62,026 bases of DNA, filler included, from Catajapyx aquilonaris (GCA_000934665.2; 2 parts of 2 records of this genome joined end to end with filler, not necessarily neighbours in it); one strand, 5' to 3'. Counted from the first letter of the whole stretch, positions 1,614-59,459 are shown. Numbers and translations are program-made. Notes: generated by a model from the letters alone, not told the origin.

Positions 1614-27751
<26,138 letters not shown>

Positions 27752-31849: not shown

Positions 31850-32385
31850 CATCATGCGAATGAGAATCACTGCAAGTAATTTTGAAGAGTGCTGCAACGT
31901 GAAGAGTGACGCAGCAGCCAGGGCTCTGTCTGCAAGACTCCTTAACCCTAAGGTAATACGACGTGACGTCCTTCATCATGGTATTTTGTATGAGTCAGTG
32001 GCTGTTGACCAATTATTATTCATGCAGCAATTTCAAGGGCTACAGGTGGCAGAAGAATGTGGCCTCTACATATCAAAAACCAGGCCTTATTTGGGAGCAT
32101 CACCAGACCGGAAGCTTGCAATGCTAACACTGCTTGAGGTGAAATGTCCTTACGTTTCGAGAGAGAGGCCCATAAACTCTGCAACTGTCCCATATATGTA
32201 TACTGATCACAATGGACATCTAGCACTGAAGCCTGACCACACCTACATGTACCAGATACAGGGAGGGAATTTTGCGACCTTATTGTGCTCACTTTTGTAG
32301 ACATGAAAGTCATATCTATAAGAAAAGATGCTGATTTTATCAGGGCAATGTTCACGAAGCTGGATCATTTTTATAGAGTACATTA
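31850..32385 (+). pseudogene. YqaJ/lambda-exonuclease-like nuclease fragment (transposon type)
   Basis: RITASNF..HGILYE..CGLYIS..YLGASPD..LEVKCPY..YMYQIQG; frameshifted C-terminal part. Confidence 0.88.
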
Positions 32386-32800
32386 CCTTCTCTTTGGCAG
32401 GGACATGAATTTGCCCCTGGCGGCGAGCCTAGAACATGAGGGACCTAAATACCGTGACTATGAAAATTACCAGCAAGATTTAGCGGAAAAGATGCCCAAG
32501 ATTTTCGAAAGGACGAAAGCACATTTGGAGGCAGGGCAGGCAAACAACAAGAAGTACTATGATAGGAAAGCCAAAGATCGTGGTTTCAAAGAAGGGGACG
32601 TCACGATGCTTTTAGTTCCTCAGCTAAAAACGGGCAAGGTCAAGAAACTGAGTCGTTTGCGGCAAGGTCCTTTCAGGATAGTCAAGCAGTTGTCACCGGT
32701 AGTGTTTGAAATCAAACCACTCATAGGTAGTAAAGTCAAACAGGTAGTTAACGTGAATCGACTGAAAAAGGACACTGAAAGATAGGTTTTCCCACAGCCG
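32386..32800 (+). pseudogene. Gypsy/Ty3 integrase C-terminal (GPF/Y) fragment
   Basis: LLFGRD..KKYYDRK..FKEGD..GPFRIVK..VVNVNRLK. Confidence 0.88.
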
Positions 32801-33242
32801 GTATGGGATGTAACAGCAGAAGATGATCCAACGGAGGTAATGACCCCTCAGCAGGTTACGCAAAAGCCGCCCAAAGTTGAAAAGGCAAAGCCCGAGAGTA
32901 GACATTCCGAGAAGCAACCGGAATTTTACTGTGACGATGAGGAAGATGATTACAGTGACGTGGGTATCACCGTGAGAGGTCACACCGGGGCACCAGCCTT
33001 TGGCACTGGCGGACTCAGCAATTTGGTTCCAGGAACCCCCTCACCTCAGTCGAGTCCCGAAAAGGACGTTTCACCCGCCGAGTCATTCGAACATGTGATA
33101 CAAAGACGTGGTCGGATCCGGTCAGAACCGAGGACCGGAGAAGAAGGTCCGGTGCTTTTAGTAGTAAAGTTTATATTGAACACACCCTATACCTTCACGA
33201 ACTCCCACCTTCCAACAGTGTCCAAGTAAATGTGGCCCTGCG

Positions 33243-33425
33243 GTGGTATGTCGTCGATACTTCCTGGAAGCCCTGGGACTGCCACACAGTCGCAGGCGCA
33301 TCCATACCATTGCCAAGGGACTTTTGGAAGGGCACAGCCCAAGCGAACGTCGTGGAGGAGATCGTGTCTCTTCAAAATCAGCATTGAAGAGAGCGAGCGT
33401 TTGTAAGTTCATTGGAGCACTCCGG
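33243..33425 (+). pseudogene. DNA-transposase N-terminal fragment (Sola-like)
   Basis: VCRRYFLEALG..ERRGGDR..VCKFI. Confidence 0.45.
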
Positions 33426-33435
33426 TCATGAAAGC

Positions 33436-33603
33436 GATTGGTGGGCGATTAAGTGTGTGAGAGCCAGGCGTCAAACTCATACCTTCGAGTTGGTCCAGAG
33501 AAATATTTCCGTTTACGCAGCTGTGAGTCACCTTAATATTGTGCAAATAATCGGATGCAGCTATAATAATGATATGGTCTACATAGTAATGGAACTTGTG
33601 GAT
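33436..33603 (+). pseudogene. Protein kinase fragment (subdomains II-V)
   Basis: WAIKCV..SHLNIVQIIG..VYIVMELVD. Confidence 0.75.
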
Positions 33604-33790
33604 GTTAAGGTCCCGGGTTCGATCCCAGCCCGGGGTTCCCCCTTCATCTCGTGCAGTTGGGTCGTCTCGGGTGGAATATCCGCTAGACATATCCACCCGG
33701 GGGAGTTCACAAACTACTGTATGTACCATATTAGAAACTTTGCACTGCACATCCCCTTATGTCATCCTGCCCGTGGGCCCAGGCGATTCA
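33600..33790 (+). mobile_element. SINE family A internal fragment
   Basis: ggatgttaaggtcccgggttcgatcccagcccgggg, same family as the TTC21B intronic copies. Confidence 0.85.
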
Positions 33791-33849
33791 AATTAATTGG
33801 CACCAAAAATGTAACAACGATCAATGTGTCATGTGGGACATGCTGTAAA

Positions 33850-34095
33850 TCTTTTCCATGGAAGCACTATCACTGTTCTCCAAGTTAGTACAGGAAAATA
33901 CGGCCCAGACATTGTACACATTGAGAATTTTTAAATCCCATATTGCTCGTTGGTGGAAGGTCGTCAATAGCAAGAACCCTTTAAAAGGACAGAAACTGAG
34001 GGATCCATCACACGAGCCAATTAGAAGTGCTGATGATGAAAACCTGCATTTCCTTGAAGAATTTGCAGGATGGGTGGGGGGATGGAAAGAGTTGC
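33850..34095 (+). pseudogene. P-element-family transposase fragment
   Basis: IARWWKVVNSKNPLKG..RD..EPIRS.DDENLHFLEEFAGW. Confidence 0.6.
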
Positions 34096-35619: not shown

Positions 35620-36060
35620 TGAAAAGCATCGTAAGGGACAGAGTGAGTAGGCCCTATATTAGGGAGAGGATGCGAACATTAGGCAGAATACTGAAAACAT
35701 TAAAGGGTAATGGGTGTCCTCATAGTTCCTTAAGCGCACTCCTTCGGCCGGAATCATTCGATCTCATCGTCCAGTGCGTGAGGCGTCTATGCAAATGGAA
35801 TGACCAGCCTGATGGGAAGAGAGACTCTGGTATTCCTTCTTTGGCCCTCGAAGTTGGCATACACCTGAAGAAATCGTGCCAACATCACGAGGGGTAATGC
35901 GCTTAAAAATCAAGACCCAGCAGCTCAAAGAAGCGCCGAAGGCTATATTCACATCCATGAACTCGAGTGGACGGCAAGGATATTCACAAGCACTTTCTTG
36001 CATGAATCAAAAGAAACAACCCAATCATTCTTCCTAACACGGATGATCTCATGAAAATAA
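35620..36060 (+). pseudogene. Fragment of an animal tyrosine-recombinase-element ORF (Crypton-like, region N-terminal to the YR domain)
   Basis: IRERMRTLGRIL..LLRPESFDLIVQCV..PSLALEVGIHLKK, then frameshifted EW..PIILPNTDDL. Confidence 0.5.
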
Positions 36061-36129
36061 ACGCTCACCTGCAACCCTGATTACAACCCAGGCATAGTGC
36101 AGCAAAAAATAAATAAATAATAAATAAAT

Positions 36130-36294
36130 AAAAAATCCCGCATGGGCCAGGCCCTCCGCCTTAAGAAATGGTACCGACCATGCTTTGAATGTTCGTCTGC
36201 GGGTCTTCTCATTCTTCAACGAGTCGAATGTAATCCACTTTCGATGTGTCTTTGTTGGGCAGTTTGACAACATTGGTGAAGGGGTTGTACTCAT
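36130..36294 (-). pseudogene. IAP N-terminus with truncated BIR domain
   Basis: FDSLKNEKTRRRTFKAWSVPFLKAEGLAHAGFF, cut off by an A-rich retroposon tail. Confidence 0.8.
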
Positions 36295-36727
36295 CCCCCT
36301 GGAGTACCGACTATGTGCAAAGCACCATGTGTACAGCATTTTATAGAAAAGAACCGTGTAATATTGTCAATGTAATGTTGTCGATGAAGCTAATATTAGT
36401 TGAACTAATATACTATGCGAGCCATTTGGTACGATGTAGCGTGCAGGAGTTATAGACAATGACGCAGGCTAATAGACGGAAAAGAAACCCATCTAGACTG
36501 GTCAAGGTCTCTTGGAACGAGAATATCCCGAGCCGAGCCCTTCCCACGTCACTTGGCATAAAAAAAACTTCCCGGCCTTCACCCTTATCACGTCACTTTA
36601 AAAGAAAAAAACTTGGAAATTCCCGAACCGCGCCCTTCCCACGTAACGTGATCATGATATAGCTCCACAGCCTACGCATCATACTGCTGCTTCATAACAC
36701 CACACTCGGCAATTGTTTGTGTGCGCG

Positions 36728-37280
36728 ATGGGACGAACAAAAAGCACAACAGCCAATGAAGACGACAAACAAGAACAAGGTGCAACAGACAAAGGAGAGG
36801 AAGAGAACAGATAAAAATACCACCGACAAGAAGCATCGATACAGGTGAGTGAATATTACTTACATTCAAACGACCATAAACCACTATTCTGTGTGTTTCA
36901 AGAGCTGGCACCGATGCACTCAGGGAAATCCGTCGATACCAAAAATCGACGGAACTTCTGATCCGGAAACTGTCATTCAAGCGGCTTGTCCGCGAAATAA
37001 TCCAGGACATGTCCAACGCGAACCTCCGGATCCAATGCGCTGCGCTTGGAGCCCTGCAGGTATGACGAGCAACCTCGTACCTTAGCTTTGAGACTAATCA
37101 GTGTGGGTGTGTGTGTGGATGTGCTTCCAGAAAGCGGCCGCGTACTATTTGACTGGGCTGTTCGAAGACACAAACTTGAGGTGCATTCATGGTAAGCGCA
37201 CAACAATCAAGCCCAAGGACATTTCCTTGGCCCTGCGCATCCGCGGTAATTTATCTCCCATTAATCTGTATCAGTATTAA
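36728..37280 (+). pseudogene. Divergent H3.3-derived histone, copy A (3 exons: 36728-36844, 36903-37059, 37131-37280)
   Basis: MGRTK(+1 frameshift)[107 protein letters not shown] introns. Confidence 0.9.
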
Positions 37281-37329
37281 AAAGTTTTTATAACCAAATT
37301 ACTCCCAGTAAGCGAACAGCTTGACACTG

Positions 37330-37513
37330 CACTGCACAAACAGGTTGAAGCTAACAGGAAAATCCTTGGTCCAATAGTCAACACAATTGTATTTTGTGGG
37401 ACGCATGACCTGGCTATGAAGGGAAACTCAGTGACTCCGGCGTTTTCAGCGACCTGCTTGCATTCAGAGCTGAAAGTGGTGACTCTGACCTGCAAAACCA
37501 CTTACAGTCTGGG
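37330..37513 (+). pseudogene. hAT (DUF4371, ZMYM/PRKRIR-like) transposase fragment
   Basis: QVEANRKILGPIVNTIVFCG..LAMKG..SGVFSDLLAFRAESGDSDLQNHL. Confidence 0.8.
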
Positions 37514-37580
37514 ATTTATACTGTTTTTTCTCCCACAGACAGAAAGAAGATCCTGAATGAGAATGTGGAATTCAAGAAAA

Positions 37581-37790
37581 CATGTCCAGTAGCGAAACGT
37601 CTACGAGCATGCGAATACCCAGCCTACGAGATATACAAGGGGGATTGGCATGTAGTGGTAAAGAAGGGGGGGACAGATAACCTCCCTTTCATCCACATTC
37701 GTCAGTTTCCTGGGAAAAATTTGAAGCTCGCGGGGTATCAGGGGTGGGGTTTTTTATATATAAAATGCTCCCGACCATGTTAGAGGCCTT
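37581..37790 (+). pseudogene. PC4/Sub1-like gene fragment, copy 1
   Basis: YPAYEIYKGDWHVVVKKGGTDNLPFIHIRQF, then a frameshifted GGVF..KMLP; resembles PC4 IDIREY..KGISL. Confidence 0.5.
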
Positions 37791-38493
37791 GCAAGAAACT
37801 TACGATCAGATGCGATGTGCAAGGGTGGTTTTTGAATAATGAGACGAATATTGTTTCTCGATCCCTTTATTTTGATTGTAACATGCATTTGGCGCTTAAT
37901 GTCCCTTTTCTATTTGGTCTAATAAATATTCAATTGATTCTGACATGTCCTGCTTATTATTCATTCCACGAAGTAGGAGTCCAAGGCTTAACATTTGGTT
38001 ACAAACGACCATTGTTTTCATCTGGCTGCGGTCTGACTAACGGTCGCGGTATTGTTAATGTTGATGAAGCATCCCGAGATGCTGTTCTTGATGAATGCTA
38101 GGGTGGTATCAGCCCTAGATACGGCCTTATTCACGGATACGTCACACTTGATTTTTGCACTATTTCTAGTAGGGGTGGGTTCATATTTGCTGTGGAAGTT
38201 GATTAGCAATTGCAGAGCAAAGCGACACAAGCGAACCCCAAGACAGACACCGGACGCAGAGGCCATGACGACTGAGGAGGGTCAAACGATATTCCCCCAG
38301 TGTGACAGGAACACCCAGAAGGCCGGAGTGAGCGTAAAGGCCGCTTCACAAACTCGGCGTGGCTAAGGCAGGGCGTGTGGAGCGCGAAAAACTTGCGAGG
38401 GTCAAAGCACAAATGTTGCGTGCGGCGGCCGAGGGAAAGCGTGGCGCTAGCGGACTTTCTGCGTGTGAGTAGCGAGCGAAGTAGCAGGGCAAG

Positions 38494-38640
38494 ATGGCGG
38501 CCGCCATGTGTACGAAGCGAAAGCTCCTGAAGGCCGAAGAGAATGAGCGGATCATTGCTCTGGTATGCTCCAATGAGGCACTCTGGAACGTAAAGCTGAG
38601 TGCATACAAGGACATCCACCTGCAAAACTCCCTGTGGGAG
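38494..38640 (+). pseudogene. MADF (Myb/SANT) domain fragment, Harbinger ORF2-like
   Basis: ERIIALVCSNEALWNVKLSAYKDIHLQNSLWE. Confidence 0.8.
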
Positions 38641-40478
38641 GATAAAGGTGATCCACGAAGATCCGAGGGCAATTCGGCAGGGCGTTACAACTGGTCAACG
38701 TAAGCCTCCCGTTATACGAGACCGACAGCCGCCTACGACTCACATTAGAGTCAAGAGAGACGGATTCACATAAGGGACAGGTACCCAGACCCGTCTTGGA
38801 TAACAACCGGCGAGTATAACGCTTTGTTGATAATTGGAATTCCTTAACCATGTTTTGTCCCAGCGATATGGAGGTACCCTTTCCTTCCTATAGACTCTGA
38901 GCTCGCAGTTTTCTGGGGTCCTTTCCTAAAGAGGAGAAACTATGTCGCAAGTAGCATATTATAGAGGGGTATATAAATGACCTTATAGCGTTTTATCAAT
39001 GACAAATATAAGATTATTGGTTATGCAAATATTTTGTAATAAATAATATTCATAATTCCCAGTGCCACAATTGTAAGCGCGTGCGAGCAGTCAAAAACCG
39101 TGTTCTTTTGGAAATACCCTGCGTGGAGATGCAGGAAGGTATGGAGTGAACGACATGCCATGAAGAGGCTGAATAAATGTCGCTACTGGTGTTTGAAATA
39201 AAAAAGAACCACAAACGTCCGTAACTGAGAACGGGGTCTGCAGTAACCAGTCCAGCGTAATGTAATATAGCCAGGGTAGTGATACTTATAAGGTGTAGGT
39301 AACATTTAACCACCTAAATAACAACAATTGACACAGGCCGCGAGCTTGGAAATATTTATAAACTCTGGAATTCATTCGTCCAATAATGGAGTCATGATAA
39401 TTTTATGCCTCAGCCCTCAGTTGTATTGCAATTTCAAAGAACTGTAGTGCAAAGATTGTCAAGTAATTATGAAAAGTAAGCTTAATATGGTACCTCTCTT
39501 TCATGGTCAAGAACTTCAGGAATGACGTGTTCCCAATGGCTCCATCAAAGGGAGCAAAGCAAGGACTCTTGGCAATAGCCAAGGTGGAGCGGCTACATAA
39601 TGAAGAACCATGCATGCACAATCCCGATCCCTTGACCATTTCCATATCGTCACTTCAGGATCCCCTGACTGTTGAGAATTATTTGACATCCCCTGAGCTT
39701 ACCGAGACCGTTCAGGATTCTTTGACATGGCCTGAGCTTACAGACACTTTTTTTTTTTTGTAACCCTACCTCACTATAACGCTGTACCCTTGTCCAACTG
39801 TGTCACAAATACCATAGGTAAAAAATATGTATTACAAAGTGTAACAGTGAGTGGATATCCCCCTATATGAGCCCATGGCTCGAAGCACGGGGCGGATAAA
39901 TAAATAAAATAGATAAATAGTTGAAGCTGTCCCCTGTCGTGCTATAAAACGGAAAAAAAACCCAAGAAAGATACAACGAAGAAGCTGAGGACATCAGGGC
40001 AGGCATACACCAGGGACTCAGGTCATATCACACGACGTACTCTGATAAGACCGAGCGAGTGCGTCAAAAAGCCTTTTTAGTCATACGTGTGTCACAGGAA
40101 AACGTGTTCAGCGCTTACAGCAGTTACTGAAGGGGGAGGTGTCATCCAAGTCAGTGAATTCACGGATGGTGGTGTGCAGTATGAATTCAAGCTTGCCAAC
40201 AAACCAAGATGACTGTACAGGCGTGAAAATAAATGCCAAAAAAATGCAAGACATAGGCAAACTCGTGCAATACATTCAATCAGAGCACCCCTAAACCAGA
40301 TGGCTTCACGCACCAACATATCAGAGGTTTTATTACTTAGCTAGCATTCTACACAGCTCACACTGCATTGGTTCATTGCATTCGGAAATCATCTCTAAAC
40401 CATCTCTCAAGCTGGAAAGCTTCGTAAGTAACTACATAGTTTCCTGTCAACAATCTCTCTTTATTCATAGACTCTACT

Positions 40479-40817: not shown

Positions 40818-41829
40818 TTAATTCCAACCATTAATTCATGAATTCCCCTCATTTCCACTTTTATATCTTCCTACCCACACCTTGCTTCCACTTAGTCTTG
40901 AGACATGGCTATACACGTTGCACTATTCGTTGGTGTTAAGCCACATAACTGTTTGAAATTACAAAAAACCGAAAAGGTGGTTAGTCTATGGAGGAATGAT
41001 TACGAGGTGTTGGAAGATCCTGGATTAATCCCGCACCAGCCATTGCACATACAGCTACTTTACGTGTGATTGTAAGGCGAAGAAAAAAAATCAATGGGAT
41101 ATTAATAAGGGTATATCTTGGTATACCCACCCCGATTGTCGTGAAGAACATGAAGATGTCATTCGTCCTGGTATGGTGAGTCTATCATCACTAGTATTGC
41201 GCGACTATTATTAAAACATTTTCTTAGTACACCAAAATGAATCTTTGCGCCAGACTCTTTCAAATGGAAAAAGAACTTTGTCAGTTGGAGGGTGGATCAC
41301 ATGACCTTCGGGAACAGGTTCCTACAATGATCCGGATGACGAAAGAGGGTTGGTAGTCGGGACGAAGACTGGTAGACCTGGTTCATCAACTACGTGCTGC
41401 TAAGGGATTGTCTGAGAATATGACGCAACATCGGGATTTATTCAAGGGCATGAAAGATATACCTTGAAAAGATGTATTGTGAAACACTCCTTTATACCTC
41501 TCCCATCTACCTCTTCACAACTTCCATCTTCTGTTCCAGTCACCAATAATGAACCTTATTTTCCCTACCCTACCGAAACTCTACTTTTGGACATATTTGA
41601 TGTGTAGACTATGTCAGTCTTATCAATAAAATAAGATAAGAAATGTTTTATTTGATATTCCTTATAGATGGAGAAGATCTGTGACAAGTTTATTGATCGC
41701 ATTAAGACTCTTCAATGGTTAAAAAAGATAAACGCACATCGATGGACTCAAGCCAGCATTCTCTTCCGAGAAAGAGAAGATAGATGGTCAATTGAATTAT
41801 GTAGCACGGAGTTCGTAATGTTTTTTCCC

Positions 41830-42762
41830 GAAATTCAGTGTGCTACGGACTGGGGTAGGTTCAAGGAACTAATCCTGGAGAGGTTTAATCCTACTCGTGG
41901 GTTCTCTGATTTGATTGGTGATGTAAAGGGGTTCAGGCAAGAAGTAGGCCAAAGCGCAAATGAGTTTGCCACGACCCTGCGTAAGTTACAGCTGGACTTA
42001 CTTTCTTGTGCTGATGCGCCGCGTGACAGGGAGACAGTGGAGTTACTGATTTTGTCTCAATTTGTTTCGGGGTTGAGTTCAGAAAAAACAAGGCACTCCA
42101 TTCAGATTTTGAAACCTAAACGGTTATCCGAGGCGCTTCGGATTGCGCTGGAATAGGAGGTGCAGGAAAAGAGTGGGTTGATAGGGTCCAAGCAGAGAAG
42201 TAGGACATTGTTGTGTAGCGAGGATGGGGAAGTGGATGTAGTAGGTCAGCTGACTGAAAAAGTAGGGATGCTCACGAAGCAACTAGAAAGGTATCAGTTG
42301 GAGGCCAACAGGAAGTGGGAAGAAGCCAAACAGGCGGTGGCGACTCCTCCTCAAGCTGGGAGTGAGGTAAAGCAAGGCGGTGTTAGACCAAAAGCTAACA
42401 GGAGTAAGCCACGCTGTTATAGGTGTAATTCGGAACAGCACTTACTGCCTCAGTGTCCGCAGATGCCAAGGAAAGCATCAGGCGCCTGTTTTAGGTGTGG
42501 GAGTATGGAGCACTTAATCAATAGGTGCCCAATGAAAATACAGGTCAGGGAGCCACCCTCGCCCTGTCCTATTTGTAGGGGGAATCATTGGAAAATTCAC
42601 TGCCCTCAGAATAAGCAGAGGGGTTATGCAATTCCGGCACCAGGTAGGCAGGTGTACTCTGGTGGGTTGCCAGGAAGTATGAGCGAAATGAGCAATGTGA
42701 CAGCCCAAAGTAGGGGGGAGAATTACTGGTACGAGTTATGTGCCTCAAATCCGTTACCATAA
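41830..42762 (+). pseudogene. LTR-retrotransposon gag fragment with three CCHC knuckles
   Basis: WGRFKELILERF..RQEVGQSANEFATTLR..QFVSGL; CYRCNSEQHLLPQC, CFRCGSMEHLINRC, CPICRGNHWKIHC; in-frame TAG at 42154. Confidence 0.9.
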
Positions 42763-43074
42763 GGGAGAAGGACCTCAGGGTAGTGGGCATTGTCCTCCTG
42801 GACATGAGTTAGCATTGGTGTCTAGACCGGGAAATGGGGAGAGCCCTCCTTTTTCCACCGGAGAATAAAGGAGAATAGGGCCAAGATACCGGGCAATCAA
42901 ACGGAAGACACGAATCAATACCCCTAAGACTCCATCACCACAAGTTTCTCCAATTTTAAGTAGGTCCAACCAGATGCCGGTGAAGGTTCCTTGGTATGTG
43001 TATGTACAACCTCCTTCTATGGTGCAGAAGCCATGTGAAAATAGGGAGCATAGGGGCGATATATCGGCTTATAG

Positions 43075-43205
43075 GATGTCCAGTGGCGAAACGTCTACGA
43101 GCATTCGAATACCCAGCCTACGAGATATACAAGGGGGATTGGCATGTAGTGGTAAAGAAGGGGGGGACAGATAACCTCCCTTTCATCCACATTCGTAAGT
43201 TTCCT
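43075..43205 (+). pseudogene. PC4-like fragment, copy 2
   Basis: Near-identical to 37581-37710. Confidence 0.5.
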
Positions 43206-43490
43206 TTAGCTGCCGCCCTGCAGAAAGACTTAAAAGAAGTCAACCAATTTCGCGCCTCGAAATGTAATGACATCGTGGCCTCATTCATCACCGAGGGATT
43301 AAGTTTCCCACTGAATCCGGATGAAGGTGGGGTGAAATTCGAGAAGGCGAACAAGATAAGTGTAAACGTTTATGATCATGATGGCAGCTTGAATGTAGAC
43401 CCAATTCGAACAACCACAGTACATGCACCGCGACATGTGGATCTCCTCTTCCTGTGTCAAGGGGAGGAGCTAGAAGAGGGTCTCACCTAA
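43206..43490 (+). pseudogene. Polinton/Maverick protein-primed polB N-terminal fragment
   Basis: GLSFPL..KFEKANKISVNVY..PIRTT..HVDLLFL. Confidence 0.75.
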
Positions 43491-43854
43491 CAACCTTGCC
43501 AGATCATTTTGGATCCACAACACAGAATGGTTGGCCTGAAGTGGAGTGAGTATTAGTCCTGACATGACTCCCCGTTGTCTCCCCCAGAGTATACTGACTT
43601 GTCTATTTTGTTCGGCCCCAAATAAAAATGCTAGATGCTAGAAACTGAGTATTGTGTCTGACTTCTGACCTCTCCCTTACTTGACCGACTCGACTTGATT
43701 CCGGCATCGTTGGATTTGCCGCCAAATTGGCGACAATCGAACAATATAATACACTAGGGGTAACACCTGACAGACCATATGTAGACATAGATGGGGAAGG
43801 TATTTTCTTCATGTATGATCCCCCCACTTACTAAAAAGCCTCGGAACAACCCTA

Positions 43855-47264: not shown

Positions 47265-47335
47265 GTAGGATAAAGAAGGGGGGCAAGGATAACCTCCCTT
47301 TCATACACATCCGAAAGTATGCTGAGATTGGCAGT
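47265..47335 (+). pseudogene. PC4-like fragment, copy 3
   Basis: IKKGGKDNLPFIHIRKY. Confidence 0.5.
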
Positions 47336-49859
47336 GTGCAGAAAGATCCCATTGGGGATTGGGACCTAGACCGGCGCAAACGGTGCATGTAAGAGAGCCC
47401 GCCTCGGGGCCTGTTCATTGGTCATTTGGACCCCTCCCCTAGCATCATTCGTCCCATCCCCCGGCAGCCTCCCGCCTTTGCCGCCATGACTACGTTCCTT
47501 TATGAGTCTATGAGCGTCACGGACAGAGCCTTTTACATCGGCCACCACCCCTTTAAATCCAGCGTCCCCCGACCTCGTGTACTTGATCATGTAGAGGACT
47601 TAAGTGACGTCAGGGTGCACTTCTGTGCCACTCTGGGCGCCAGATTTAATTTTGACCGGCTGGCGGGAGGTGCCATGGGGCCAGCAGACATTCAGGCGGT
47701 CCCAATTATTAACCAGGGACTGACTAGTGTGGGTACTAATATTATAGACGTATATAAGGGGGCTTACCCGGCATAGCCATCTGCAGCCCCCGGCTCCATC
47801 AACATCTAATCACCGAAAAGTGACAACATCATAAACAAACAAGAAGAGCCAAACAAACCTGGATAAACCCGAAAACCGAAACTATGATCTCTTGCTCCTG
47901 GAAGTCAAGTGCTGTCTTGGATTCGCCAGACAGCACTCCCCTAAAATGTTTTTCCCGTCGGCGTGGGAAACAACTGAACGTTGTGAGGCGTGTCTGGCGC
48001 ATACTATCGTGCTACCATTTGCAGGAAGAATCTATTATCAAGCCCTGTCGAGTAGCGATGAGATTGATTCCGAAGCTAGCACAGAGCTGGCTTTCGATCC
48101 GACGCCTACCGGAGATGACTCCGGCTGTTTGTCCCCCACCCCCTCTGAGGAATCGGACGAATCAGAAGATTGAACCTATCTCCGGGAATCCCTGACACGT
48201 GTCATGCCGCCTACGGCATAACAAGAAAATTAAACATACTTTAATTACGATATTAATTAGCGTCCGACATACACTTGAATATCATAAATTATGTCTGTTT
48301 ATTAAAACCAGGGAAAGGCAGCAAGAAATCTGTAGACTTCCTGGCGCCGGAAAGCCATTCAAAAGAGCCATTCGAGTCCGAGCGCGGAGATAGGTACAAG
48401 AAGTACACCGCATCAATGTAACAAGTCCGTCTCTAGGATGGAGGGGTTATGTCGATATTACAGGAAAAACCTCGAAAAGGGTACTCACGTGGTGTAAACC
48501 CCACCCAGAAAACGGACACTACAAAAGCAGGTCCGGTTTGTAGAATCAAGCAGTAAGTAAGTAAGCAGTAAGTAAGTAAGCAGTAAGCAGAGAGTCTTCC
48601 AGAGAATCGTTGCCGAGACTGTACAGATTCAACTCTGACAGGTAAGCCAGCCATGTGGCAAAATTTCCAGTTGCAATTATTTTTCTTCTCATGCAACCAC
48701 AGATTGAGAAGGTGTATTATGCATGAGTAAGGTGTACAGAGAATGTAAGTGTCACAGTAGTTATTCACTTATGTATATTGTAGTGAAGAGGTTAGAACTT
48801 TAGAATCTATTGTTGAGGTTAAAATATATACAGCATGTCAAAGAGAAGGATAAGTCGAATTGTAAACTATTCATGAAAGTGTATTGTGTGTGTAATAGCG
48901 AGCGGTAACGCTCTGATAAAACAAAGAGCCTGAATTGGCTAAATTAAACATGTTATTTGAAACCATTCCCTGAATACATTTTATTCCCGCTGATATCCGA
49001 CACATATATTTCTACTTAACTTATATTCGAACCCCGTACCTTCCATAATACCATAATATATTTCCATGCCCAGATGTTTGATTAGGATTGATGATTTGAT
49101 GTGGCTGTGGTGTAAAATTATACTGCAAATTCAGCAGATGTCATATCCCACTAGTCATTCCAGAACTGATTTACTAATCAGAATCGAAGTCATTGTCACC
49201 GTCAAGAAGACTTCAACGACCTGATCACTCGGTCAGCTTCAGCTGATTTGAGGTACTTGCACAGTTTCAGAACATCTGTCAATTTTGCAGACTTGACTGG
49301 AATGAATTACTTGTACAATGCTTCCGTAGGAAATGAGAGACATGTTGCTTTCCTCTGTCCAACATATGACTGGCACAGAGCACCAGACATAGTTTGTGAT
49401 ACCCTGACCTGAAACTTGTGCACCTTTGAGTATTCCAGAATCTTGCATTTGAAATCAGAAGCAGTGACGGACCGCGTAAAAATCGGCGCAAAATGCCCTT
49501 TGAAATCATGACCATTCATGATAATGACATCAAACTTTGCCCCAACCAACATTTTGGACAAATGACTATCGCCATGTACCAGGCCACTGAGAATGAAAGC
49601 AACCATACTCCCAAAAAAACAAGTTATTTGTGATCATTTTTTTTGTTGAGTTATGCACGTTTTAATTCTGGGTGCTTCGATTGTAGTCGTCTTGTTTCAT
49701 CCGCCCTTAACTTCCCACAGTTTGCCTGCTGTTACCATGGAGCCTCCACGTGTCTCTCCACGTACCAGCTCGTCCAAACGCGACAAGGTAAAATAATCCC
49801 ATCACCTGCAAGCACGGAGTCTCTCTGGCATGGTTAAGACTATAGGTAATGTATCGTCA

Positions 49860-49985: not shown

Positions 49986-51689
49986 AATGCTTGGAACGGA
50001 TGGGATTAGGCTCACTGATGAATACCGCCATGTTGGGTAGGTTACTCAAAACACGGAACCAATTGTAAAATATGGACCTCCTCTGTCAGAGTTACGGCGA
50101 CCCGACCATAAAGGCCCCGCGCCAATGTATCTCATCATCCACAATTATTCAAAGGCTAATCAAGAACAAGAATTTACATTTACTGTCCTCACAAAAGGAA
50201 CTCCAATCAAACGATTAATAGAATTTACGTTAGAGAAATTACATTTATATTTTAAAATGAAGCTGAGCCAAATAAGATCTGAAAAGCTGATAGTTCACAA
50301 CAGTTTAATTTTAATGTACATTTAATGCAAGTTTTCGGTAAATTTATGCAAATTTTAAGATTTTCTAAAAGCAAAAAACAAGTATGGAAGGGAAAATGGG
50401 GGGAGGGGGAAGCAATGCCCTGAATGCTCAAGGACCCAACTCTACTGCAGCACTCCCATACGCATCCCCCAGGCCCTAGCCCAGTGTCCCGCCCCGAAGC
50501 TAGGCATTTATGTCCGACAGCACTGCGTCCGCCCGTAGACAAAAGGTGGACCTCCTGTGAAGGATCCACAATTAATACATGCCAGTTTTGTCCAAGTCCC
50601 TGCATGGGAATGGTCAGAACAGCAGGAAGCGGATCAGTTAAATTGTTGGGGATAAGGAACCAGTGTGGATAAATTACACAGCATACGATTCACAAGCTAC
50701 ATCGGAATTAATTACAATGCTTAAAGCATCCCCTCAAGGTATAGAAGCCATACGCGTCAAAGATCGAAGCCGTATAAGGGGAAATCCGAGAGATGTCCTC
50801 TTGTAGGGTGTGCTTGCTCCCTCAGTAGATACATACATAGGCCATCCCACATAACCAGTCACCTGAACGTGAATTGTATGTATTGTCCGGTCTGCTCCAG
50901 ATCACTGTACAGTATCATTGCATGGGTAAACCATATGTTGTATTCACATAAAGAAAAAAATGAAGGTAATACTGAACAGAACAGGATATGCACATATGCT
51001 ACGGTATGATGCAACCCGAGTGAATTAATCATGTGAGAGGAATTTGGACGTGATGACTATTTTTTTTAAACTACTTCTATTTTTAGCACACTATATGGTA
51101 ACTATTGCATTGTTTTTATTATTCTTCAATTTAAAATGAAGATTTAATGTTGTATCAATCTCTTATCAATGTAAGTGTCTTGTATTTCGATGTGCAGTTG
51201 AAAATCTTGTCTCGTGTGAGTGGATATTGTCATGGTTGATATTGCGAGCTTGGACTTCTTGGAGTAATTATTTATGATAATATTAATAGTATGTATAATA
51301 CAGGCATAATAAGAGTACAATGCGATCGCAGCTCTATATTCACAGGCTCACCGGCGCCAATAAAGCCATTAACTTGCTTCTGACACTGCAAACCATTGCC
51401 TGCGCTTACAGCAGCAAAACGTGTCAGCGTAATCAATGTCATAGTTAGAAGTGTCTTATATAGATTCCACAGAATGCTTAGCAAGAGTCAGGTTATCCCT
51501 ACAAAATACTATAAAAGGACCACAAAGGGTTCAGCAGAAGACCGAGATGGGCAGCCCACCAGCCAGAGATGTAAGAAATAATTTTCAACCGCATTAAGTG
51601 ACTTTGGAGGGGAACCCTTTAATTAGTCGTAACCTCCGACACTTTAATGTAAGCTGCAACATGACGCAGCGACGTCCGCATATGGAGGG

Positions 51690-52080
51690 GCCATGTAAAA
51701 TATTCGTGTATAATAAACAAGCATTCATTGACTCTGTCATTGACATCCTGATGTCTCCCTGCCCCACGCATATTACCTTCCAACTTATATTCGGACCCGT
51801 ACCTGCTTAGGTCCGACACTTCCACCCCATTGACATTACACGCAAACTTATCGAAATGGAACAGAACGAACGAGTTTTCAGGTGTAATCTTATCCTCATC
51901 TGAATACTTGGAATTGTCGTTGCCCTTCACGATATCACTCTTAAAATGGACTGGCTCAGGTAAAAGTAACCATCCATTTTCGTCATTCTATGAATTACGT
52001 CACTTCTATGGGAATTGATGTCACCCGCTTCGGGTGCAAATATGTAGTCCAGCATTTTGAAGTAGTCCATTCCGGTCATG
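51690..52080 (-). pseudogene. Polinton-type major capsid protein N-terminal fragment (frameshifted)
   Basis: YFYLSQSILRV/DIVKGNDNSKYSDEDKITPENSFVLFHFDKFACNVNGVEV resembles my recollection of Polinton capsid N-termini. Confidence 0.55.
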
Positions 52081-52167
52081 GCGTTCAGGACGGATTGGCC
52101 TTGTGTGTCACCATGTTTGATTGCTCAAATGTGTAAGCGAAAAGTAATAGGGTCACTGGGATCATGT

Positions 52168-52512
52168 CGATACCAAAAGTCGACGGAACTCCCAATCAAG
52201 AAACTACCATTCCAACGACTAGTACGAGAGATCCTGCAGGATTTGGAGACTAACCTCCGGGTCCAATGTGGGGCACTTGGAGCCCTGCAGGTATGACAAG
52301 CAACCAATCACCTTAGCTTTGAGACTAATATGATATGTAACGTGTGCATTTGTATGTATGTATGACGCTTCCAGGAAGCGACGGAGGCGTACCTAGTTGG
52401 TATCTTTGAAGATACCTACCTCTGTTGTATCCATGCAAAAAGCACAACAATCATGCCCAAGGACATATCCTTGGCTCTCCGCATCCGCGGTGACTTATGT
52501 CTGAGTGTCTGA
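52168..52512 (+). pseudogene. H3.3-derived histone, copy C (5'-truncated; intron 52291-52374)
   Basis: [81 protein letters not shown]. Confidence 0.9.
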
Positions 52513-52539
52513 TGGAGAAGGAGGGTGACTGTCAAAAAC

Positions 52540-52895
52540 ATGAGTCTCCCTGGTCTCACCTACGATACGGCTTTGCGCATGACTGGTATCTCCATCTCCC
52601 TCTTCACAGACGTCGAAATGTATAAATTTGTTGAGAAGGGTGTCAGAGAAGGATGCGCTTACGTGGGATTGAGGCATTCAGTCGTCAACAACGAGTACAT
52701 AACTGACCCTAACGCCCCCTCCACCTACACTGTCTATTATGGCATGAATAACCTTTATGGATACAGCATGTCCTGGCATGTGCCCATGGGAGGGGTCCAT
52801 CACTCTGGAACCGATCCCCCAGCTCCTGACACATTATATTGGAGACGCCAGAAAACGACGAGTATGGGTACATCCTGGAAGTTGACCTGAAATAT
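52540..52895 (+). pseudogene. Polinton/Maverick polB polymerase-domain fragment
   Basis: SLPGLTYDTALRMTG..LFTDVEMYKFVEKGVREG..NNEY..YYGMNNLYGYSMS..P.GG, then frameshifted GYILEVDLKY. Confidence 0.9.
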
Positions 52896-52909
52896 GCTCG
52901 AGAACTCCA

Positions 52910-53097
52910 TGATTCCCAATAGGAGTACAAGTGACAACCTCTTTATACTAAATGCCCTGGTACAGCACAGGCTGCGGAGGAAGAGTGGGAAAATGTACGC
53001 GATGTTCGTGGATCTTAAATCCACATTCGACAAAGTGGATCGCGTGAAACTTATGACAAAACTGTGGAACATAGGAGAAAAGGGGAAAGTGTGGAGA
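52910..53097 (+). pseudogene. Non-LTR (LINE) reverse transcriptase fragment
   Basis: PNRSTSDNLFIL..MYAMFVDLKSTFDKVDR..LMTKL. Confidence 0.88.
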
Positions 53098-53179
53098 CAC
53101 TCACTCACTTCACCTCAGCAGTTACCCGAGTACAAAGACGCATGGCATGTGCAGATGACATTCCATCCTCAAAGAGGCC

Positions 53180-54098
53180 CATTTACCCTGCGGAGGAAGA
53201 CGAGATGGGGCTGCAAGTAAATGTGCCGTTGTATTGGCCAAAAAATCTCGACGTGTCCAGCTCGAGATACGGCCTCGAGAATTGCAACAACCGAGAGACG
53301 TCTTGTGGCTGCAAATCACATATCAATTCAACTTTGTTGTTGTAAAATGCCTGGATACTGGGAAGTGTAGCATCGGGCTTCATGAAGAGGTCAAAGGGAG
53401 ACCGTCTGGGGCTCTCGCAGTGGTCACCCTGGGATGGTGCCGCTCAGTCGTTCTCACATCAGCAGATGGGCGAAAATTACAATTGGAACATTTGCGAATT
53501 AAAACAGGATTTGGCCACTGCATACCAGTTAAACCACCCACCCCCCAGTAAATGGTTCATCGGGGTTCCCCAAGATGGCTTTGAAAGCAAAAAGCACAAA
53601 TGTCAGACACTCGTTGGTCAGCACGTGCTGATGCTAGTGAAGCCCACGTATATGGATACAACTGTATTCAAAATACCCTCAGAGATATTGAGTGAGTGAC
53701 TTGGAGCAAACACCTGAAGCAAAATATGAAGCTCAGTCATTGGCAGACAAAATGGATTGTCTTGAAACTGCTCTGGAGGCGAAGGTCTGGAACTTAATTC
53801 TGGTGCAGTTCAACAACCAAGTAAGCTTTTCAAGGAGTTGAAGTTGACCTGAAGAAAGTGGTTGATCTCACTGATTCTCTAGAAAAAGCTTCTGGAGTCA
53901 CTGAGGGATAGACATGACTAGTTGGAAATAGATGCCAGTAACTTTTGTGGCAACACAGACCACAAAGCAACTACAGGCAGGTCAAGAAAGAGAAATCAAT
54001 GCTTTGATATGAATCCCACATCAGTCCCAGGAAATTGCCCTGTCTTCCAGAGAAACATTCAGATGGGGAACATTTTCATTTTAGATAAGTTGTCAGCG
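53180..54098 (+). repeat. Composite block duplicated at 55228-56133; includes a hAT transposase fragment (about 53695-54098)
   Basis: Near-identical sequence from catttaccctgc to tgtcagcggc; hAT-like EAQSLADKM..WNLILVQFN. Confidence 0.9.
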
Positions 54099-54741
54099 GC
54101 GGTTCCCATTGTCCTTTTTGACCGTCCCGTTATTTATTTTGTGCGTGCAGATGGAACCAGTGATGAAGAACATCCCCGTACGATTGTATTTGATTTCGAA
54201 GGGTGGGTTGTATCTCCGGTGGGAGGTGTGTGACCTTCCTGAATGACTCTCTCGTCACTGGCCCATTCCATCACCCTTTATTTTTGAGTTGGTTTTGCCT
54301 CCCCCATTTACCAATGTGAGATGCGCCGTTGCATTGGCGAGGTAGACCTATTTTTCCACCGCTGTATATACCGTTAGCTGCAAAGGTCTGTTAACCATCA
54401 TGCAACCTGTTTAATACGTCAATCCTGCTTCACCTTCTTTAGTAACCATAATGCATTGTTCTCACCCTACTATTTAACCAACCGCCCACGTATGCTCCAG
54501 GCCAGTTCCCCGGGAGCATATCCCGGGGGCTGGTCGTTACTCCCGACCTATCACTCTTCACCCATTTCACCTATCCCTTCCTGACTTTTGTTTGTAACGC
54601 ACGTTTCAAGGCAGAATAAACCAAAGTACAATGGACCCACTAGTTTTGATATGTTTCACCTGCTTCGGTGACAACTTCACAGTCTATACGCATCATATTG
54701 CTGCTTCATAACACCACACTCGACAACTGTATGTGTGTGCG

Positions 54742-55231
54742 ATGGGCGCACAAAAGCACAGCAGCCATTGAAGAGGAGAAAGAATAAGAACAAGGTGCAA
54801 CAGAAACAGAACCGGGCGCAACACCCAAAGGAGAGAAAGAGGACAGACAAAAAGAGTACTGACAAGAAGCAGCGATATAGGTAAGTGAATATTACTTACA
54901 TTCAAACTACCATAAAACACTACTCCTTGTATTTCAAGACCTGGCACTGTTGCACTCACAGTCAGAGAAATCCGTAGATACCAAAAGTCGACGGAGCTTC
55001 AGATCCGGAAACTAGCCTTCCAGCAGCGGCTTGTCCGTGAGATAATGCAAAACATTTCCAGCGTAAACCTCCGCATTCAATGCTCTGGGCTGGGAGCCCT
55101 GCAGGTATGACGAGTAACCTTGCACCTTAGCTTTGAGACTAATCAGATGTATGCGTGTGGGTGCGCGCTTCCAGGAAGCGGCCGAGTCCTATTTGGTTGG
55201 GCTCTTTGAGGATACAAACTTGTGCTGCATT
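54742..55231 (+). pseudogene. H3.3-derived histone, copy B (exons 54742-54880, 54939-55104, 55175-55231; 3'-truncated)
   Basis: MG(-1 frameshift)[96 protein letters not shown]. Confidence 0.9.
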
Positions 55232-56235
55232 TACCCTGCTGAGGAGGAAGAGATGGGGCTGCAAGTAAATGTGCCGTTGTATTGGCCAAAAAATCTCGAC
55301 GTGTCCAGCTCGAGATATGGCCTCGAGAATTGCAACAACCGAGAGACGTCTTGTGGCTGCAAATCACATATCAATTCAACTTTGTTGTTGTAAAATGCCT
55401 GGATACTGGGAAGTGTAGCATCGGACTTCATGAAGAGGTCAAAGGGAGACCGTCTGGGGCTCTCGCAGTGGTCACCCTGGGATGGTGCCGCTCAGTCGTT
55501 CTCACATCAGCAGATGGGCGAAAATTACAATTGGAACATTTGCGAATTAAAACAGGATTTGGCCACTGCATACTAGTTAAACCACCCACCCCCCAGTAAA
55601 TGGTTCATCGGGGTTCCCCAAGATGGCTTTGAAAGCAAAAAGACCAAATGTCAGACACTCGTTGGTCAGCACGTGCTGATGCTAGTGAAGCTCTCGTAGC
55701 CTATATGGATACAACTGTATTCAAAATGCCCTCATAGACATTGAGAGTGAGTGACTTGGAGCAAACACCTGAAGCAAGATATGAAGATCAGACATTGTCA
55801 GACAAAATGGATTGTCTTGAAACTGCTCTGGGGGCGAAGGTCTGGAACTTAATTCTGTTGCAGTTCAACAACCAAGTCAAGATTTTCAAGGAGTTGAAGT
55901 TGACCTGAAGAAAGTGGTTGATCTCATTGATTCTCTAGAAATGTTTCTGGAGTCACTTAGGGATAGATATGACTATAGATGCCAGTAACTTTTGTGGCAA
56001 CACAGACCCCAGAGCAACTACAGGCAGGTCAAGAAAGAGAAATCAATGCTTTGATATGAATCCCACATCAGTCTGTCTTTCAGAGAGAAATTCAGATGGG
56101 GAACATTTTCATCTTAGATAATTTGTCAGCGGCTTTAAAAGAACGAAGGGTAGCATACCAATCAGTGTATGACAGGTTCAATGTCATAGTCAACTTATCC
56201 AGTCTACCTCATGCAGAGATGAGGACTGAAGCTGA
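55228..56235 (+). repeat. Second copy of the composite block, continuing further into the hAT transposase
   Basis: ILDNLSAALKERRVAYQSVYDRF. Confidence 0.85.
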
Positions 56236-56479
56236 GGCAGCTGCAGACCCCCGGACAATGCACATTAGATGTCCAAAAAGGTCTGCTAGGAATGTACATT
56301 ATCGCATTTGAATGAACTGAACACCTCGCTGCAAGGGAAGAATAAAACTGCCGGAGCTTTTCGAGGTTGTGAAGAATTTTGCAGCTCCACTCGTCGTATG
56401 GCACGTAGACATATCTGATGGACGCCTGCATGTCCCTATCCTCACCAGTGTGACTTCAAGCGACGAATTAATCGACTAC

Positions 56480-56825
56480 GGACCTTTCGCAGAATTCTTG
56501 TCGCACTTGGAGAAGGAGTTCCGCAATAGGTTTACAGACTCTTTTGTCAGTTTTTCTTTTTTTCACAATGCATAACCCCTTCTCTGCAGAAGAGCACTCA
56601 CAGTCTGCGTGGAGTCCTTGACCATGGCAGGTTGCAACTGGAGACCTGCAAGCACTACTTCAAAACGGAAATCAAGTCGGACCGGACTTTTGATGCAAGT
56701 TCGACAACCAACGGTTTCCGAACCTTCGAAAGGTGGGAATTCAGGTGTACTCCATGTATGGGTCAACATATATTGTTCCGAGAGTGAGTTTTCAAAGACG
56801 AACTTCATAAAAAATAAGTACGCTC
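56480..56825 (+). pseudogene. hAT C-terminal dimerisation-domain fragment (SPIN/GTF2IRD2-like)
   Basis: FLSHLEKEFRNRF..PNLRK..SMYGSTYCSESEFSKTNFIKNKY (frameshifted). Confidence 0.75.
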
Positions 56826-57344
56826 TGAAGCAATCTGTTGCAAGAACACCTGGAAGCCTACCTGCAAATTGCGCAACTTCGTACATTCCAGAATTTGCGT
56901 AGTTGACTCTCCTAATGGGTAGATGCGAGAAGTAGCACGAATGGGACTCCGACATATGGAGCAGGAGGAGAGGGCTGGTGCACATCGCCCAAAGGTTCAT
57001 CAAGACACCCTGCAATTGGTTGCGTCCTCATCCTTGACCTCATGTGAAAGGATACAGTTGGTGTAATCTTAGACTATAATATCAAAGGGAGATGGTAAAC
57101 CCTCCTGCCAATGATGATCTTCAGTATTTTATCTGGGGTTGGGATCATTATTGCATCAGTCACTTGCAAGCTTTCTGAGGTCAACCCCAACAGAAGAGGA
57201 AGCCGCCACTTGCCAAAGCGACGCCGATGAAGAAGATGGCGCGTACATGAAATTTGGACAAACCAGTAAGCTTTCCTTGATTCGTGGGAAAATGGTCCCT
57301 GGATTTACACTTGTTTTTACACATAAAGAATATTCTCAACGAGG

Positions 57345-57565
57345 ATGTCTTTTGAGGTGTGCAAAGCGGCAGCGCACCTGAAGGCTGCGGATTACCCGGC
57401 CTATGAGATTTACCAGGGTGGCTGGCACTTGCAGGTGAAGAAATGAGGGGAGATGCTGTTTGTACACATCAGGATGTATCAGACACAAAACCTGAAGGAA
57501 AAAGGGGGAAAGGGTGGTGTATTTTTCTACAAAATGCTCCCAGCGATTATAGAAGCCCTTCATCC
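57345..57565 (+). pseudogene. PC4-like fragment, copy 4 (diverged)
   Basis: [56 protein letters not shown]. Confidence 0.5.
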
Positions 57566-57629
57566 AGCATTGCTCATGCTAGACTTTCAACACTTCCAAT
57601 CATCCTACCCCATTCAGCCAAACTGCATA

Positions 57630-57788
57630 GTCCAGTCTGCAGCCGTTGGAGCAATCCAGGAGGCAGCAGAGTCATACCTGGTTGCCATATTTGAAGACAT
57701 TAACATGTGCAGCAGCATCCATGCCAAGAGGAAAACCATCACCCCCAAAAATATGATGTTGGCTTGCCGCATTCGTGGTGACACCTGA
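57630..57788 (+). pseudogene. H3.3-like C-terminal fragment, copy D (no intron at Q|E)
   Basis: [51 protein letters not shown]. Confidence 0.88.
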
Positions 57789-59459
57789 TATATTTCTTAT
57801 GATCGAGATCTATTTCTTACACTTGTGTATAATTACGATATGTATTAACAGTGGAGAGCAAATGGATCAACTCGGGCCGCAGGGAGCGCATTCAACTCCC
57901 AATTGACTGCAACCTTGCATAGGCAGTGATTCTTTGCCTGACAATATACTATGTGAAGCACAATATCCACATGTTCAGCAGGGTAGAGCTCGGGACATAT
58001 ATGGGGAAGGTGCAGTTAAGATCCAGCAACACAGCCGTCCAGCACCAATGGCAGCTGGGACAGCATACCTGCCTCCTACTCAGGAGGAACTGGAAGCATC
58101 GGTAACCCTGGTCGAGGTTCAACATGAAGAACCCCTGGTTCACTTTTTGTCGTCAGCTGCATACTTAAGATAGAGGGGCGGGCAGCTGGCGCAACACCAA
58201 CGTGCTCAAGAGGAGGCGGCCCCAAGAGAGGCTTTTAATTCTAGGCCCATATGCCTTTACTACAAGAAGAAAATAAATAACCAGAATACATATTTGCAAG
58301 TGCGTGGAGTGGATTTTTCATGGCTATACGGATATTTATGATGCTGATATAAAATATATAATCCCTGCACCATAATTACACAAGAAATTTTTCAGATTCT
58401 TACAGGGTAAACTGGTGCTTCCCACTGCACTTATTATTATTGCAACTATAAAATACTTTGGTGGTCTGGCTATTGCCTCTTTCAGATGGAAATGGACCAA
58501 AATATTAAAATGGCCCAGGACCATGAAACATTCCGAGCTGCAGACATGAATTGATACAGATGGAGCGGAAACATGACCAACCAGCCCATGTGAATTTCTC
58601 ATGTGTGGCTCATTCTTGGAGCAATTTGCTCCATCACTCAGGCAGGAATAAGGACATCTAGTCATCTCAACTGATGGCGGCAACCAGGCCCATGGGTCTT
58701 CTTCCCAACTGCTACCCTCACGTCGTCCCCGCCAGTACCCCGCAAGGGATCTCTTGATGGTTAGGGGATTGAAGCCCTTCCCTTCCCTCCATCCCACAGG
58801 CCTCCTCCTCATCCCGTCCATCAGGTCCTTCCATACAAGTCAAGGGCAGGAACATTGGCTTCATCCATGTGATTTACTAGGCAAGGTTGGCTATGTAACT
58901 TCATCATCATTACTCATCATTCTTCAAGGCTTTTCCCAAAAGACTCGGGTTGCCAGCGGATAACGAGGATGAGGTCCTCGCTACCCTCACATAACCATTA
59001 TAAAATTTTTTTGGAGACTGGTCGAGAACTAGAAGAAATGGGGAGGGAGGGAATTACAACAGAGTGCCGCATGGTCAGGCTATGCAGGGTTGCCGACTTC
59101 GACGGTGTCCCTGGAGACATCCAACCACAAAGGAAGGGCGAGGCAGGAGTGCCATCTCACTGCTGAGTTGTTGGAACCACCAGAACACCATTACCGTGTA
59201 GGGGACGAAGGAGGGGAGCAAAACCTCCAGGCTTTTGTTTGGAACGCCTTCTACTTGTCGAATCATTGCCAACAGATAAAGCATGTGATATAAAAAAGCA
59301 GATGTGATGCTGTGTGGATGTGCCCTTTCCAATCTGCAAAATAAGAAAAGTACGTATTAATTTTCAATTTATATTTCAGGACATTTAAAAATGGCCATCA
59401 CAACACTTAGCACACAAATCTCATGAAATATTCCATTATCAATACCCCCCTTTTTGCCC

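Follow-up and report, generated by a model that had tools for sequence, protein, structure and literature searches.

We analysed a 62,026-nt window of the Catajapyx aquilonaris genome (GCA_000934665.2; two parts joined end to end with filler), whose coordinates are used throughout, and focused on a region of about 27 kb (31,850-59,333; 27.5 kb) that holds truncated pieces of mobile elements and host genes. The only gene recognised within the window is TTC21B, whose exons run on the plus strand from ~1.6 kb to the end of the last exon at ~27,748 and encode the Pfam ARM_TT21 domains in order. This gene has the same orientation as the fragments, and ~4.1 kb separate its stop codon from the start of the fragment region. 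Two runs of N, 44 nt each, lie between the two (30917-30960 and 30973-31016), so the left approach to the locus is incompletely read; within the region, single Ns occur at 34377 and 35022. Two Pfam scans were made, one with all stop-to-stop open reading frames (ORFs) of at least 50 aa in six frames of the whole window (n = 558; E ≤ 0.01) and the other with the ORFs of at least 45 aa in 31.7-59.4 kb (n = 325, 158 on the plus and 167 on the minus strand; E ≤ 1), and matches at E ≤ 1e-3 were taken as strong pieces.

All strong matches within the region fell on the plus strand (12 of 12 ORFs), and none was found among the 167 minus-strand ORFs. The 12 ORFs form 10 loci that belong to seven unrelated families, namely YqaJ, Ty3/Gypsy integrase, protein kinase, histone H3, CCHC-type gag, P-element transposase and long interspersed element (LINE) reverse transcriptase. 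An initial annotation, made from the sequence alone, had claimed a one-strand bias and proposed a binomial test of it; the bias was borne out, and at the level of families (7/7 on one strand) the two-sided test gave p = 0.016. Five weaker identifications (MADF, the gag domain proper, the P-element TNP-like_RNaseH_C and two pieces of family B DNA polymerase, polB) were all on the plus strand too, and in the E range of 0.01-0.1 names fitting mobile elements occurred only on that strand, at positions that the context predicts. The best minus-strand matches bore unrelated names (IHHNV_capsid, E = 0.0072; Zn_ribbon_LapB, 0.008; DUF2292, 0.0086; Imp-YgjV, 0.014), and their number is about what chance gives among 167 queries; weak plus-strand matches to Cas8b_C, TB and Cohesin_load are equally meaningless. 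The minus-strand IHHNV_capsid match was rejected as a candidate viral piece, since its E value is at chance level and it lies in a 93% duplicate of a segment that has no such match. The concern that plus-strand pieces are merely easier to spot did not hold, because the two-strand scan remained one-sided and did detect a minus-strand control, a mariner/Tc1-type helix-turn-helix remnant lying antisense within a TTC21B intron (4988-5425; HTH_32, E = 2.1e-6; HTH_48, E = 6e-4), which indicates that the scan sees both strands.

Repeat pairs detected by self-BLAST pointed the same way, with 7 direct and no inverted pairs inside the region and 38 direct and 38 inverted pairs outside it (Fisher's test, p = 0.014), although the 7 direct pairs come from about three repeat families and are hence non-independent. 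The even outside count agrees with the annotation's statement that the TTC21B introns carry repeats both ways. AT skew reached 0.062 in the region, compared with 0.010 for the gene part. The hexamer AATAAA occurred 27 times on the plus strand of the region (expected 15.6) and 13 times on the minus strand (expected 12.8); with an excess on the plus strand and none on the minus strand, the latter would be the easier one to transcribe through. ORFs of at least 100 aa were also more numerous on the plus strand (34 versus 19, p = 0.053), but this asymmetry is no greater than that of the gene part (23 versus 12) and was therefore not used as evidence.

The recognisable pieces are fewer than first proposed (Table 1). 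Instead of dozens, with some 26 on the plus strand, about 15 can be supported (the 10 strong loci and the 5 weaker pieces), all of them on the plus strand. Among the proposed donors, YqaJ, Gypsy integrase, P element, LINE reverse transcriptase, histone and kinase were recovered as strong matches and MADF, gag and polB as weaker ones, while hAT, Crypton or tyrosine recombinase, capsid, BIR/inhibitor of apoptosis and a second P element were found in none of the 325 ORFs at Pfam E ≤ 1; RNA-virus domains were likewise absent from this set. Only two of the seven families are of Gypsy type (integrase and gag). The YqaJ remnant has an open frame of 174 aa whose tail carries on in the next frame, and the integrase piece includes an SH3_Tf2-1 match (32627-32770, E = 6e-4). 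The gag remnant spans 1.1 kb with a single in-frame stop: an ORF with matches to Retrotrans_gag (E = 0.077) and SCAN (E = 0.02) at 41668-42153 lies immediately upstream of the CCHC ORF and in the same frame, and motif patterns applied to six frames placed two CCHC knuckles at 42415-42456 and 42487-42528. For the P element, a collinear half-gene of 1 kb is spread over three shifted frames, with TNP-like_RNaseH_C (E = 0.09) at 44166-44495.

Table 1. Pieces and repeats of the fragment region, in window coordinates
Feature	Position	Strand	Evidence
YqaJ-type nuclease domain remnant	31776-32330	+	Pfam YqaJ E 9.4e-5, profile 9-141 of 150, ORF 31776-32297
Ty3/Gypsy integrase C-terminus and pol tail	32340-33226	+	Integrase_p58_C E 8.4e-11 (ORF 32237-32782)
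Protein kinase N-lobe fragment, ~58 aa	33430-33603	+	Pkinase E 3.2e-7, profile 23-81 of 263, ORF 33388-33885
Short interspersed element (SINE)-like repeat	33600-33713	+	77-84% identity to 7222-7348, 9315-9440 and 24561-24689 in TTC21B introns
H3-type copy 1	36728-37280	+	Histone E 5e-13 (profile 32-84, 36880-37062) and 6e-12 (81-122, 37098-37277)
Unit U copy 1, 130 bp	37582-37711	+	97.7% identical to 43076-43205, sharp ends
MADF-like fragment, weak	38554-38640	+	MADF_DNA_bdg E 0.057, below Pfam cut-off; ORF 38485-38700
Retrotransposon gag remnant	41668-42759	+	zf-CCHC E 1.7e-5 (ORF 42157-42759)
Unit U copy 2	43076-43205	+	Continues in frame into the polB N-terminal piece
polB N-terminal region, putatively protein-primed (Polinton-type)	43239-43466	+	Protein search, ORF 42984-43487
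P-element-type transposase, C-terminal half	43791-44766	+	TNP-like_GBD E 5.3e-8 (ORF 43791-44078)
Unit U copy 3, partial	47265-47346	+	In a stretch of 4-10x word depth
Very high-copy repeat	50084-50548	+	Word depth 5,316-12,693 versus ~20-45 nearby
H3-type copy 2, 5'-truncated	52159-52501	+	Histone E 2.3e-9 (52066-52293) and 2.2e-14 (52366-52509); 73% identity to copy 1
polB mid-region fragment, lead only	52513-52887	+	Protein atlas score 0.97; no Pfam match
LINE-type reverse transcriptase fragment	52891-53217	+	RVT_1 E 1.8e-5, profile 44-107 of 205
Segment B copy 1	53180-54100	+	93% identity to 55228-56133
H3-type copy 3, 3'-truncated	54675-55231	+	Histone E 3.7e-9 (54916-55107); 79.5% identity to 36663-37187; joined to B copy 2
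Segment B copy 2	55228-56133	+	Direct duplicate, 0.9 kb, offset 2,048 bp downstream
Unit U copy 4, extended	57301-57562	+	60% identity
H3-type copy 4, C-terminal part only	57621-57776	+	Histone E 2e-12, profile 72-122 (ORF 57447-57785)

For polB, the ORF at 42984-43487 gave three matches among 1.84 billion representative proteins, two of which (E = 5.6e-4 and 7.6e-4) cover residues 86-161, a part that we take to be the segment N-terminal to the exonuclease motif of protein-primed B-family polymerases; the matched proteins were assigned to no Pfam family. For the mid-region fragment, one of the matched protein-atlas clusters has DNA_pol_B_2 in 28% of its members. These putative Polinton-kind polB fragments are the only virus-like pieces of the region. 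Several further searches added nothing. A minus-strand ORF at 36052-36366 with a hAT-like terminal motif noted by eye had no usable protein-atlas match; motif patterns on six frames gave no BIR-like or polB match, and the pattern ERxFS matched three times on the minus strand and never on the plus strand, without Pfam support. Reading whole frames through stops at 31.5-40.5 kb, on the plus strand only, revealed no further family. A word-indexed protein search of the ORFs at 42984-43487, 32237-32782 and 58339-58839 (the longest on the minus strand) gave nothing at E ≤ 0.001, which is weak evidence either way, and a PDB sequence search with two plus-strand frames of 37.3-52.1 kb (a 4,933-aa read-through) returned no match, this search being insensitive and offering no strand comparison.

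The pieces meet at abrupt mid-gene junctions, as the initial annotation had described. The polB-like ORF at 52513-52887 and the reverse transcriptase ORF at 52891-53217 share one frame with a single stop codon between them, the frame of the YqaJ tail passes directly into the integrase C-terminus inside ORF 32237-32782, and the kinase piece stops at 33600, where the SINE-like repeat starts. Abutment is thus evident at polB/reverse transcriptase and YqaJ/integrase; throughout the region it is unproven, as only ~23% of the sequence is assigned (Pfam-matched stretches cover 2,055 bases, or 7.5%, and the wider pieces ~6.3 kb, or 23%). The claimed lack of long terminal repeat (LTR) pairs, terminal inverted repeats and target site duplications stood in so far as no inverted or LTR-like pair was found by BLAST, which does not reach short terminal inverted repeats and target site duplications.

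Direct duplication has contributed to the region. The four H3-type copies are 73-80% alike and all direct. Copy 1 extends from the start codon through the end of the histone fold and contains two GT-AG introns (36845-36902, 58 nt; 37060-37130, 71 nt), and copy 2 retains the same second intron; the introns kept in these two copies indicate that they were copied as DNA and not as cDNA. The only defects visible in copy 1, one frameshift and one stop codon, affect the N-terminal tail. In our reading, a frame that begins at a second ATG (36756) continues through both splices to a stop at 37278. The copy could be either a pseudogene in decay or an H3 variant that has diverged. The four copies of unit U are also all direct, and copies 1 and 2 are flanked by different neighbours. 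When translated on the plus strand, unit U yields a motif that matched 14 stretches (summed E = 2.8e-16) of a 1,822-aa protein composed of numerous nearly identical repeats. The repeat at 50084-50548 is 75% identical to a diverged copy at 13064-13261, many contigs branch at 50084 and 50126, and its word depth relative to the surrounding sequence corresponds to several hundred copies in the genome. Together, the whole intron-bearing H3 copy, the direct duplications, the SINE-like repeat and the high-copy repeat do not support the proposal that the region was built by end-joining of snippets rather than by transposon landing. Nested insertion followed by deletion accounts for the abrupt junctions equally well, and growth by insertion, deletion and local direct duplication fits the region with no special end-joining capture device required.

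We next considered whether the region is correctly assembled. Read support came from DNA runs that all derive from one sample, which probably also gave rise to the assembly, and their contigs were built independently. Contigs without a single difference were found in all three runs at 36212-37641, 38372-39893, 43167-43893, 44728-46775, 50519-51734, 51708-53231 and 54591-55199, and at 41535-43135 (shorter in two of the runs). They bridge the junctions of H3 with U, of gag with U, of U with polB and the P element, and of H3 with polB and reverse transcriptase. Word depth was single-copy-like in 26 of 30 bins (run X1, 8.7-62) and raised in four bins (46.7-48.0, 50.0-50.7 and 54.0-54.7 kb). Exact contigs across the junctions and single-copy depth make a chimeric or collapsed assembly unlikely, and the worry about chimerism that accompanied the initial annotation was thus allayed by contigs of one sample. 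Two alternative forms were also seen in all three DNA runs of one sample, namely a contig path leading from 55974 back to 53928 and a contig that skips 102 bases at 48536-48639; these may represent a second allele, a further copy of the 2,048-bp duplication or repeat-induced paths. Run X5, from another sample, had exact contigs at 36815-37059, 37675-37895, 38017-38272, 41290-41443 and 53778-54008; it may be RNA or thin DNA and was not used, and its 32 Mb of contigs cover ~5% of the stretch, which is compatible with thin DNA.

The same data bear on the age of the pieces. Given the single-copy depth and the unbroken contigs of 0.6-2 kb over gag, polB, reverse transcriptase, P-element and H3 pieces, these have no exact 31-mer in common with any other copy present in that individual. 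The remnants are therefore old or orphaned and probably poorly matched to young elements, and the suggestion that the locus keeps a memory of current invaders was not supported.

Taken together, we suggest that the region consists of old and decayed remnants of mobile elements and host genes, their coding sense kept on the plus strand, and that it is a candidate for a present or former uni-strand source locus of PIWI-interacting RNAs (piRNAs) read from the minus strand, a possibility that we favour tentatively and place somewhat short of probable. The layout of the DNA is what such a cluster would be expected to show, with seven families and several weaker ones within 27.5 kb, that is, unrelated remnants in one orientation over tens of kb; of the cluster proposed initially, this layout stood, and end-joining and current-invader memory were not supported. 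Under this reading, the locus would have grown through insertions, deletions that fused neighbouring remnants and direct copying of segments. Transcription of the minus strand would begin either beyond the window or at a point rightward of ~59-60 kb, yielding a long precursor that lies antisense to the remnants and would be processed into piRNAs able to pair with transposon messages; the polarity may have arisen because antisense insertions were selected for.

Two known systems offer a comparison. In Drosophila, flamenco (flam) and flam-like loci of 227-1,085 kb carry most fragments opposite to the direction of cluster transcription, for which selection of antisense insertions was proposed as the cause, and they have Gypsy-family enrichment, a mapped promoter and sequenced piRNAs (PMC10643416). 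With these loci our region shares the character of a non-coding stretch full of truncated remnants of many families, mainly in one orientation; it differs in its 27 kb, in its mixture of DNA-transposon, LTR, LINE, polB and host pieces and in the lack of a visible promoter (PMC10643416). Neither Gypsy enrichment nor a length of hundreds of kb, the marks of a strictly flamenco-like locus, was found. Mosquito core piRNA clusters are unidirectional, contain antisense viral remnants, start no more than a few kb from a gene that lies upstream and owe their transcription to its read-through (10.1101/2022.08.22.504762; for read-through also PMC7161354). The present region is likewise unidirectional, tens of kb long and begins a few kb past a conventional gene (here ~4.1 kb), but the mosquito remnants, many of them from non-retroviral RNA viruses, are antisense to the read-through, whereas here the gene is co-oriented with them (10.1101/2022.08.22.504762). 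Together with the lack of any RNA-virus remnant in the Pfam comparison of 325 ORFs at E ≤ 1, this sets the region apart from mosquito clusters that trap endogenous viral elements.

Several points weigh against a piRNA source locus. Because TTC21B ends at ~27.75 kb on the plus strand, co-oriented with the fragments, its read-through would be sense RNA and not antisense; neither a promoter nor a gene on the minus strand was recognised at 59.3-62 kb (no Pfam match), so that the driver of a minus-strand transcript, if any, would lie outside the window. The region is far below the size range of the flam-like loci (PMC10643416), and just two of its seven families are Gypsy-type. The lack of common exact 31-mers argues against present-day targeting of young elements, although targeting with mismatches could occur. 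The excess of long plus-strand ORFs does not surpass that of the gene part, the polarity is partly non-independent given that the four H3, two B and four U copies arose by direct duplication, and the locus was chosen from a very large scan in which some chance extremes are expected.

These last points also feed the rival that the region is a functionless transposon graveyard whose polarity reflects local direct duplication and chance as the extreme of a huge scan, which we regard as rather unlikely, though not negligibly so. The H3-type, B and U families were copied in direct orientation inside the locus and account for 4 of the 10 strong loci, the remnants are old and single-copy, the ORF-length asymmetry does not exceed that of the gene part, and with seven independent families p is just 0.016. 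However, the seven unrelated families and the five weaker pieces are not copies of one another and yet all point one way, the dispersed U copies hold their orientation despite different flanks, and the adjoining 32 kb have repeats without polarity (38/38). Selection in a transcribed region could give polarity with no small-RNA role, and the region may accordingly be an intron or read-through tail of a long minus-strand host gene from which sense insertions were purged for their splice or poly(A) signals. An antisense bias of transposons within host genes is well established, and AATAAA is enriched on the plus strand and not on the minus strand. We nevertheless consider this explanation quite unlikely, since no minus-strand exon or domain was found across 27.7-62 kb and hence no spanning minus-strand gene is visible, since intronic bias is usually moderate and not 100% while the polarity here is complete, and since the TTC21B introns next door hold repeats both ways.

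A more radical explanation is polar capture, in which short invader and host pieces are copied in one orientation, by reverse transcriptase template switching or by directed end-joining, into an actively written archive. It would account for the abrupt polB/reverse transcriptase and YqaJ/integrase junctions, for the sharp-ended 130-bp unit that occurs four times with different neighbours and always on the plus strand, and for kinase and H3 host pieces amid transposon pieces. Yet the introns kept in H3 copies 1 and 2 imply a DNA rather than an mRNA template, copy 1 represents an entire gene, and the P-element and gag pieces extend over 1 kb (as a collinear half-gene) and 1.1 kb, respectively; moreover, the SINE-like and high-copy repeats landed ordinarily, non-coding transposon parts may fill the remainder beyond the ~23% assigned, and a single deletion across two neighbours gives the same junctions. 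We thus deem polar capture very unlikely, and just as improbable is its broader form, in which polar copying would write the locus, self-patches such as the 130-bp unit included, as one of many archives in the genome that feed small-RNA defence, an animal counterpart of spacer acquisition. The least probable explanation, to which we attach hardly any weight, is a single large composite mobile element (a Helitron-, Pack- or Polinton-type carrier) or an assembly chimera. Gene-fragment carriers such as Helitrons and Pack-MULEs hold captured pieces in one orientation, and the likeness extends to unrelated gene pieces that abut and to two polB pieces in the right order, 9 kb apart. Such carriers are, however, multi-copy with defined ends, whereas the region is single-copy and has no ends that could be found from repeats and depth, with no terminal or inverted pairs by BLAST (short termini not searched), and a chimera is made unlikely by the contigs that cross the junctions without difference in all three runs of the one sample.

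If the piRNA reading is correct, the region would provide a piRNA source locus for this species that is built largely from DNA-transposon, polB and host-gene remnants and not from Gypsy elements, and the neighbouring introns, with repeats in both orientations, would make a clean internal control when selection on orientation is considered. Should the locus give rise to no small RNAs, the complete polarity of unrelated remnants would still call for an explanation.

Further observations were made on base composition and on the flanks. CpG observed/expected, at 0.66 for the region and 0.53 for the gene part, does not discriminate between them; the whole window is depleted in CpG with an excess of TpG/CpA, and this composition suggests germline cytosine methylation of gene and fragment region alike. 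Rfam (E ≤ 0.1) and tRNA scans gave no match inside the region, and no look-alike of the stretch turned up among the other genomes covered by the large scan from which it was chosen. Just to its left, a sub-threshold match to a type I hammerhead ribozyme was found on the plus strand (31587-31628; 26.4 bits versus a gathering score of 34, E = 0.034), close to a tandem pair of 128 bp at 31223-31498. To the right of the region, a long foldback pairs 60201-61230 with 61725-60616 at 82% identity, and precursors of several microRNA families match its central hairpin at ~60.9 kb below threshold, on either strand; the stretch at 60201-61725 is probably a foldback-type element.

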